Of a stretch of 64,000 nt of DNA, positions 60,195-61,389 are shown piece after piece. A model generated the notes under the pieces. That model was not told where the DNA came from, did no database searches, and saw only the letters and a program-made list of their open reading frames with translations. The position numbers were made by a program, and so were the translations under genes. How positions within the stretch are numbered: position 1 is the stretch's first letter; every line of letters begins with the position of its first letter. Location of the stretch: assembly GCF_036507355.1 (NCBI RefSeq), contig NZ_AP027877.1; one strand, 5' to 3'. The stretch is from Escherichia coli (GTDB lineage: Bacteria > Pseudomonadota > Gammaproteobacteria > Enterobacterales > Enterobacteriaceae).

Positions 60195-61389
60195 CATTTT
60201 TAATATGTAAAACATCAGCAACAAAATCAGGATGTGCAAGATGCTCCGCGGCAATATTTATCCCAAGGTGAAACGGCTTTTTCACTTTCCAGCTTTGTAC
60301 ATCCTGAATAATCAGTTCAAAGAGATGCTTAGTTAACGGTATAATTAAATTTTCCTCTTCTGCAGCGCGGATAAAAACTACCGGAGATATATTTTTACCA
60401 TCTTCGCGTTGCCAACGCATTAACGCTTCAACCCCCAGACACTCTTTTGTTGTCGTGTCATATACTGGTTGATAATGCACTGAAAATTCTCCAGATGACA
60501 TTCCTTTTTTAATTTCTTCTGCCAGGGACATTTTTCGAGATATCCAGCGCTGCCATAAGAAGTACAGGATAAAAGAAAGAAGAATAGATAATGGAAGAAT
60601 GTAAAACACATTACTAATGACATAGGGATATAATGAAATTATCGGCGTAGTAACTGTAAGACTAGCCTGACTGATCGCAGAATTAAAATCTTTTTTTAAC
60701 ATATATAACTTGTCATTATTATTTACACCACTAATAATTGCAGGCCCTTCAGTAAAGCTAAGAGAAAATGAATCATCATTCTCATCATCAAGAACATCCA
60801 TTAGATCATAGATATATCGTGACTCTACAATACTAAAAGCTGTCATATCATTCCCTATTGGCATAAGGAATACTATGGCTGTTTTACCTGGTACAAAACT
60901 TGTACCGCTAATGGATACTATGCGTGATTCTTTATTTTTATTGTGAAAGCTCGTACCGTAAACATCGTTAACATTCATTTTTTTGAAACCGCTAACTGAA
61001 GAACATATTTGGAAATTATTTTCTATAAGACCCGTTGTTCGAACATAGGGAGTCAATGCTCCGTTAGCAATCAACTGTTCAAGAATGTCTTTGCAGGGCT
61101 TCATCACCAGAATAGAGGTAAGCTTTGTCGTATGCTGGACAATTTGCGTAACATTATCAAGCTGTTTTAACAGAATACCGGCGGTAATTGTCGTATCTCT
61201 ATTCATTTGAAATATTGACATAGCAAACGATAGTAACACCCCCAGAATGCCTGGTATTATAATGAGTACAAACATTTTTTTGTTGAATACCATACATGTT
61301 TCCCCACGCATCAGGGTGATGCAACCTAAGAAATTATAGTACAATTGCCAGTAAAAGCGGGTGATAGCAGACTGATCAATGATAAGCAT
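60195..61389 (-). pseudogene. CSS-motif/EAL-domain c-di-GMP phosphodiesterase, 3'-truncated by IS1 (possibly the pdeT/vmpA type)
   Basis: ORF track 399 aa; N-terminal transmembrane helix, periplasmic domain, second helix, then EAL-domain start (EFSVHYQPVYD...EALMRW) that runs into the IS1 end; true start probably the internal MVFNKKMFVLIII. Confidence 0.7.

Follow-up and report, generated by a model that had tools for sequence, protein, structure and literature searches.

The closest described relative of the locus analysed here is pdeT of Escherichia coli O157:H7 strain EDL933, where the gene, also named vmpA or Z1528, lies immediately downstream of ycdT (PMC4287979). The gene belongs to O-island 47 (OI-47), a 31.7-kb island that spans z1528-z1556 and also encodes GrvA (PMC8565820). 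Its product, VmpA, is described as a phosphodiesterase of c-di-GMP with an influence on the regulation of biofilms (PMC4076661, PMC8565820), and PdeT is listed elsewhere as an extra, sixth CSS-domain phosphodiesterase of some EHEC and EPEC strains (PMC5897775). [quoted passage not shown] 2018, PMC5897775) have in common a two-cysteine periplasmic CSS domain held between two transmembrane helices (TM1 and TM2) and followed by an EAL domain. The neighbouring ycdT, or dgcT, has been linked to PGA, and vmpA to biofilm regulation (PMC4287979, PMC4076661).

Here we describe a truncated copy of this gene, pdeT', in a window of 64,000 nucleotides of E. coli DNA (the whole stretch that was analysed, and to which all coordinates refer unless another locus is named). 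Gene and locus are the same as in EDL933: pdeT' follows dgcT/ycdT directly on its 3' side, diverges from pgaABCD and has the same TM1-CSS-TM2-EAL layout, except that the C-terminal 138 of 504 residues have been lost; with 366 native residues left, the coding sequence is not full length. Judged from its sequence, pdeT' is very probably a plain loss-of-function pseudogene remnant of pdeT/vmpA that arose through an IS1-associated deletion. The features on which this reading draws are the following:

51972..52059, tRNA-Ser(GGA) gene (serX), bordering the island
56243..57010, plus strand, IS1-A, a simple insertion that splits a LolA-like outer-membrane lipoprotein-sorting gene
59100..59426, minus strand, a LolD-like ABC ATPase gene of which the 3' half remains (matching the LolD profile at positions 119-220 of 221) and the intact form is 708 nt in strain 33E
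59427..60194, minus strand, IS1-B, 768 bp, with insA and insB' and no target-site duplication
60190..60194, minus strand, terminal bases of IS1 that end the hybrid ORF: they complete a Gly codon and supply the TGA stop
60195..61293, minus strand, pdeT' (vmpA'), codons 1-366 of 504 and the first base of codon 367, comprising TM1, the CSS periplasmic domain, TM2 and the first ~108 EAL residues
61294..61389, minus strand, in-frame 32-codon upstream extension of the ORF, corresponding to the longer RefSeq start (536 aa) of some records
61390..61486, minus strand, dgcT-pdeT spacer, 97 bp, part of the island and retained next to IS1 in strain 14EC033
61487..62845, minus strand, dgcT (ycdT), intact, 452 aa, upstream of pdeT' on the same strand
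63433..64000, plus strand, 5' end of pgaA, divergent from dgcT and running off the window

The preliminary description of this DNA was right to place dgcT and pgaA nearby, the former 97 bp away and the latter starting at 63433 on the opposite strand. It took dgcT to lie downstream of the ORF, and this has to be reversed: both genes are on the minus strand, and dgcT precedes pdeT'.

The ORF list gives a minus-strand ORF of 399 codons (60190..61389), 398 of whose residues are native. In Pfam, residues 63-222 of this ORF match the CSS-motif domain (PF12792, E=3e-13) and residues 291-395 the EAL domain (PF00563, E=4e-24), the latter only at model positions 2-107 of 236. A hydropathy scan found a hydrophobic segment on each side of the CSS domain, at approximately residues 7-30 and 225-250 (504-aa numbering), and both conserved CSS cysteines are kept, in KPCKD and ICSSV motifs. 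The layout first proposed for the ORF, in which a signal anchor, a periplasmic domain and a second helix precede the beginning of an EAL domain, is thus borne out by the CSS and partial EAL matches together with the two hydrophobic segments. Among NCBIfam models the best match is PRK10551, a c-di-GMP phosphodiesterase model covered at positions 15-374 of 518 by the pdeT' product and 12-511 by intact PdeT. PdeT is a paralogue rather than an equivalog: even the full-length protein scores 311.6 bits against a cutoff of 461.

Alignment agrees with the suggested CSS-EAL family and names the gene: by sequence, the ORF is pdeT/vmpA (Z1528), which encodes a CSS-domain EAL phosphodiesterase. The closest intact allele, pdeT of strain XJ34, is 99.7% identical at the DNA level and likewise lies beside dgcT, while identity falls to 98.2% for the RefSeq pdeT of isolate LR14 (WP_024248312.1) and to 97.7% for O157:H7 pdeT alleles. 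RefSeq uses the gene name pdeT for the intact homologue in several records, and in XJ34, LR14 and 33E the gene order is the same, each intact homologue following dgcT directly and diverging from pgaABCD. Over the 398 native residues the remnant differs from XJ34 pdeT at four bases, two of them non-synonymous: C310Y (window 60461), which sits just before the EAL motif, and M250I (window 60640), both in 536-codon numbering. Four differences are too few to be informative on relaxed selection or on their timing relative to inactivation.

RefSeq annotates two starts for pdeT, giving 504 or 536 codons. Upstream of the ATG at 61293 there is a Shine-Dalgarno sequence, GGGGA, at a distance of 7 nt, and this start matches the 504-aa RefSeq annotation; no Shine-Dalgarno sequence was found before the ATG at 61389. 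For these reasons the likely start codon is ATG 61293, giving a 504-aa protein, and not ATG 61389, where the ORF had originally been taken to begin. The extension at 61294..61389 is probably an untranslated leader. A scan of 59300-61600 for promoters and terminators returned counts no higher than those in shuffled sequence, and the single promoter-like match in the dgcT-pdeT spacer (61423..61395) belongs to a class of matches that do not exceed the chance count.

At its other end the gene stops abruptly. Homology to pdeT ends exactly at 60195, where IS1-B begins, and the junction reads AAA AAT G/GG TGA (the slash marking the boundary), so that the end of IS1 gives the last codon, Gly, and the stop. 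To assess what this removes, we located the catalytic motifs by aligning full-length PdeT to the solved PA3825 EAL domain. The pdeT' product keeps the EAL motif (EALMRW) and the conserved Asn motif (GINIAA), and it has lost LEITER (ExxE), DDFGTG, LKIDKS (KID), AEGVST (AEGV) and VQGYL (QG). It contains neither a complete cytoplasmic EAL domain nor the full set of EAL metal-binding and catalytic residues (EAL Glu, Asn, ExxE Glu, DD pair, Lys, EGVE Glu and Gln). In EAL enzymes such as RocR and TBD1265, the ExxE, DDFGTG, KID, EGV and QG motifs provide most of the metal ligands as well as the catalytic lysine and glutamate. The predicted product cannot have working phosphodiesterase activity: with these metal-binding and catalytic residues missing it would be unable to hydrolyse c-di-GMP, and the earlier proposal of a catalytically dead product is upheld by the absence of all five motifs.

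Intact PdeT itself departs from the consensus. At residues ~495-500 it has AEGVST (in XJ34 and in proteins P0002-P0004) where many EAL enzymes have EGVE, the second Glu being replaced by Ser, and one common allele (P0003) has EVL in place of EAL. Intact PdeT is nevertheless described as an active phosphodiesterase in papers that cite Branchu et al.

The question then is how IS1 came to abut pdeT codon 367. Both IS1 copies in the window are 768 bp long, contain InsA (91 aa) and InsB' (167 aa) ORFs, and carry the terminal inverted repeats GGTGATGCTGCCAACTTACTGAT... and ...GGTAATGACTCCAACTTATTGAT; they are 99.87% identical, with one base in 767 different. The element equivalent to IS1-B in 14EC033 is annotated in RefSeq as an IS1B-family transposase. 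No 9-bp target duplication is present at IS1-B, whose flanks (GTGGC-IS1-CATTT, that is, ...CAGTGGC and CATTTTTAA...) share no repeat. Using the intact island of strain 33E (locus L003) as the reference, we found that 52041..56242 is colinear with L003 2449..6650 and 57011..59426 with L003 6642..9057, and that 60195..64000 matches L003 34448..38254. The breakpoints are therefore window 59426, equal to L003 9057, and window 60195, equal to L003 34448, and relative to 33E 25,390 bp (L003 9058..34447) are missing, with a single IS1 in their place. None of this missing DNA, including the 3' 416 nt of pdeT, occurs elsewhere in the window, and the 25 kb could sit elsewhere in the genome, beyond the window.

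A simple insertion of IS1 into pdeT was considered and rejected, as there is no target duplication and the far flank belongs to an ABC ATPase gene that in intact islands is 25.4 kb away. One IS1 joins pdeT codon 367 to the middle of that gene, and the event is on this account an IS1-associated deletion. Of the cut that the preliminary description placed about 110 residues into the EAL domain, the position stands, with ~108 residues kept and homology stopping at 60195, and a plain insertion does not, given the 25,390-bp deletion and the absence of a target duplication. We infer that the deletion took place either as an adjacent deletion through intramolecular transposition or when two IS1 copies in direct orientation recombined; the sequence fits both, and an IS1-B that lacks a target duplication is what the product of a deletion or of recombination might look like.

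The same lack of a duplication would also be expected if separate IS1 copies in pdeT and in the ABC ATPase gene, in direct orientation, had been collapsed into one during assembly with the 25 kb still lying between them, and IS1 is a highly repeated element in E. coli genomes (75,523 matching places). Such an artefact seems extremely unlikely. The source record is a single chromosome-sized contig of 4.64 Mb, which suggests a finished assembly, and real IS1-bounded deletions of the same island exist with other junctions, as in 14EC033. Even a collapsed junction would leave pdeT interrupted by IS1 at 60195.

Read as a deletion, the event removed ~19 whole genes besides the 3' end of pdeT and the 5' half of the ATPase gene, according to the annotation of 33E. 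The losses are:

the 3' 416 nt of pdeT
a FidL-like gene
a winged-helix regulator gene at the grvA position, presumably grvA itself
an SDR oxidoreductase gene
a chaperone-usher fimbrial operon
a two-partner-secretion adhesin gene and that of its transporter
a fatty-acid/polyketide-type block with acyl-carrier-protein, ketosynthase, dehydratase and acpS genes
a separately annotated ATP-binding protein gene
the 5' 381 nt of the LolD-like ABC ATPase gene, which should include the Walker A region

Compared with OI-47 of EDL933, the island in the window is thus ~25 kb shorter, and the regulator at the grvA position, the fimbrial operon and the two-partner-secretion adhesin genes are gone.

The other IS1 copy has a simpler history. 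IS1-A is flanked by a perfect 9-bp target duplication, TATTCGGCG, at 56234-56242 and 57011-57019, and the LolA-like gene that it splits is 789 nt long when intact in 33E. As IS1-A and IS1-B are oppositely oriented, an inversion between them was also considered; it was rejected because the 2.4-kb segment that separates them is colinear with 33E and IS1-A keeps its 9-bp duplication. From the ATPase remnant, the minus-strand genes of 52252..59426 form a lipid-export-like string that continues with a 218-aa protein of unknown function, a LolC/E-like permease, the split LolA-like gene, a 462-aa unknown, a FabD-like ACP S-malonyltransferase and ycdU; in the K-12 counterpart only a ymdE fragment and ycdU are left. 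Next to serX, an 80-bp stretch that overlaps and follows the 3' end of the tRNA gene (52041..52120) occurs twice in 33E (L003 2020..2347) and once in the window. It looks like an att-type direct repeat, and ~280 bp are absent from the window.

How widespread are the gene and its truncated form? We used 60197..61486 as a megablast query against 5,426 complete RefSeq E. coli genomes. Sequence of pdeT was found in 415 of them (~8%), in one copy each, and was wholly absent from the remaining 5,011 (~92%). Among the 415 genomes with the 5' part, 411 cover at least 80% of it, and the 3' 416 nt are likewise present in 411 complete genomes. Since the two ends occur in 411 and 415 genomes, respectively, it appears that pdeT, where present, is almost always whole. 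The IS1/pdeT junction of the window is spanned by none of the 5,426 genomes, and the exact 399-aa product was found on one contig among ~15 billion proteins (GenBank BED22925.1, locus tag VEE46_26930, labelled a hypothetical protein). For the available data these two results reject an allele shared across a lineage, and on the same comparison the truncated pdeT is a strain-specific lesion. A partial pdeT product of 393 aa from S. flexneri (P0011), on a short draft contig, ends a few codons before the truncation point in the window; an insertion sequence may have struck this part of the gene there as well, or the contig may simply end at that point.

If pdeT' is translated at all, its product would be a TM1-CSS-TM2 stub that is anchored in the membrane, contains less than half of the EAL fold and is presumably unstable or inactive. 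Were the stub made, it might, while non-catalytic, modulate c-di-GMP indirectly by forming mixed dimers with PdeB, PdeC, PdeD, PdeG or PdeN or by titrating DsbA, DegP or DegQ. The probable start codon of the remnant, the Shine-Dalgarno sequence in front of it and the spacer upstream are all still there, as are TM1, TM2 and the two CSS cysteines, and CSS phosphodiesterases are controlled by DsbA-dependent disulfide formation and by DegP/DegQ processing (PMC5897775). We nonetheless regard such a role as very unlikely: the allele occurs in one genome only, and hence shows no sign of having been selected or of spreading; an EAL barrel of which half is missing would be expected to misfold and be degraded; and the destruction of ~20 other genes in the same event fits random decay. 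The four base differences from XJ34 are uninformative on this point. It is just as improbable that a stable stub acts as a dominant-negative partner or decoy for other CSS phosphodiesterases or for their DsbA/DegP control, or that read-through from pdeT' and IS1 newly drives the downstream ABC-permease remnant. If either were true, the rearrangement would amount to a regulatory change and not to plain decay. We prefer to see pdeT' as a plain pseudogene, and PdeT activity would then be gone from the window strain.

What this loss might mean for PGA depends on the neighbouring genes, which are in good order. DgcT is identical to its K-12 counterpart at 439 of 452 residues and has no stop codons, and its GGDEF domain (TIGR00254, E=8e-46) has the GGEEF motif; of the 189 open codons of pgaA in the window, 182 specify the same residue as in K-12 PgaA, and the remainder of the pga operon falls beyond the window. 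That loss of PdeT could raise local c-di-GMP and PGA synthesis, as first suggested for this locus, is a reasonable guess in view of the links of ycdT/dgcT to PGA and of vmpA to biofilm regulation. The idea is weakened by the 5,011 of 5,426 genomes that are without pdeT and by the expression of ycdT/dgcT in K-12, reported to be very weak (PMC4287979). The PdeT-less state is the same as that of K-12 and of ~92% of complete E. coli genomes, from which the gene is entirely absent. For work on PGA or biofilms in the window strain, the relevant points are that dgcT and the beginning of pgaA are intact, and that PdeT activity is expected to be gone together with one fimbrial operon, one two-partner-secretion adhesin and the regulator at the grvA position.

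The gene, its family and insertion-sequence-mediated decay of this kind are all already known, and the lesion is of little importance beyond the annotation of the window strain. There, the hypothetical protein in GenBank would be better labelled as a pdeT pseudogene, truncated by IS1, in a partly deleted OI-47-type island. Set beside other strains, it is a further case of erosion by insertion sequences, both of the OI-47-type island and of the accessory c-di-GMP genes of E. coli, and K-12 and 14EC033 have undergone such decay independently. In K-12 MG1655, for which the preliminary description was right to give no intact gene at this position, there is no pdeT; 10 bp beyond dgcT lies the start of IS3D, and next come the ymdE pseudogene, ycdU and serX. 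Strain 14EC033 (NZ_CP024147.1; L005 3233..4000) has an IS1-bounded deletion of the island with junctions at the equivalents of ~56083 and 61390 in the window; it removes pdeT and the ABC transporter genes entirely, whereas the window strain keeps the 5' 1.1 kb of pdeT, and by these junctions it is independent of the deletion described here. In MG1655 and 14EC033, as in the window, the dgcT end of the island adjoins an insertion sequence, and pdeT and internal island genes have been lost. Taken together, the 14EC033 deletion, the K-12 IS3D site and the junction in the window show that the dgcT-proximal end of the island has been repeatedly eroded by insertion sequences. In 14EC033, pgaA is in addition annotated as frameshifted.
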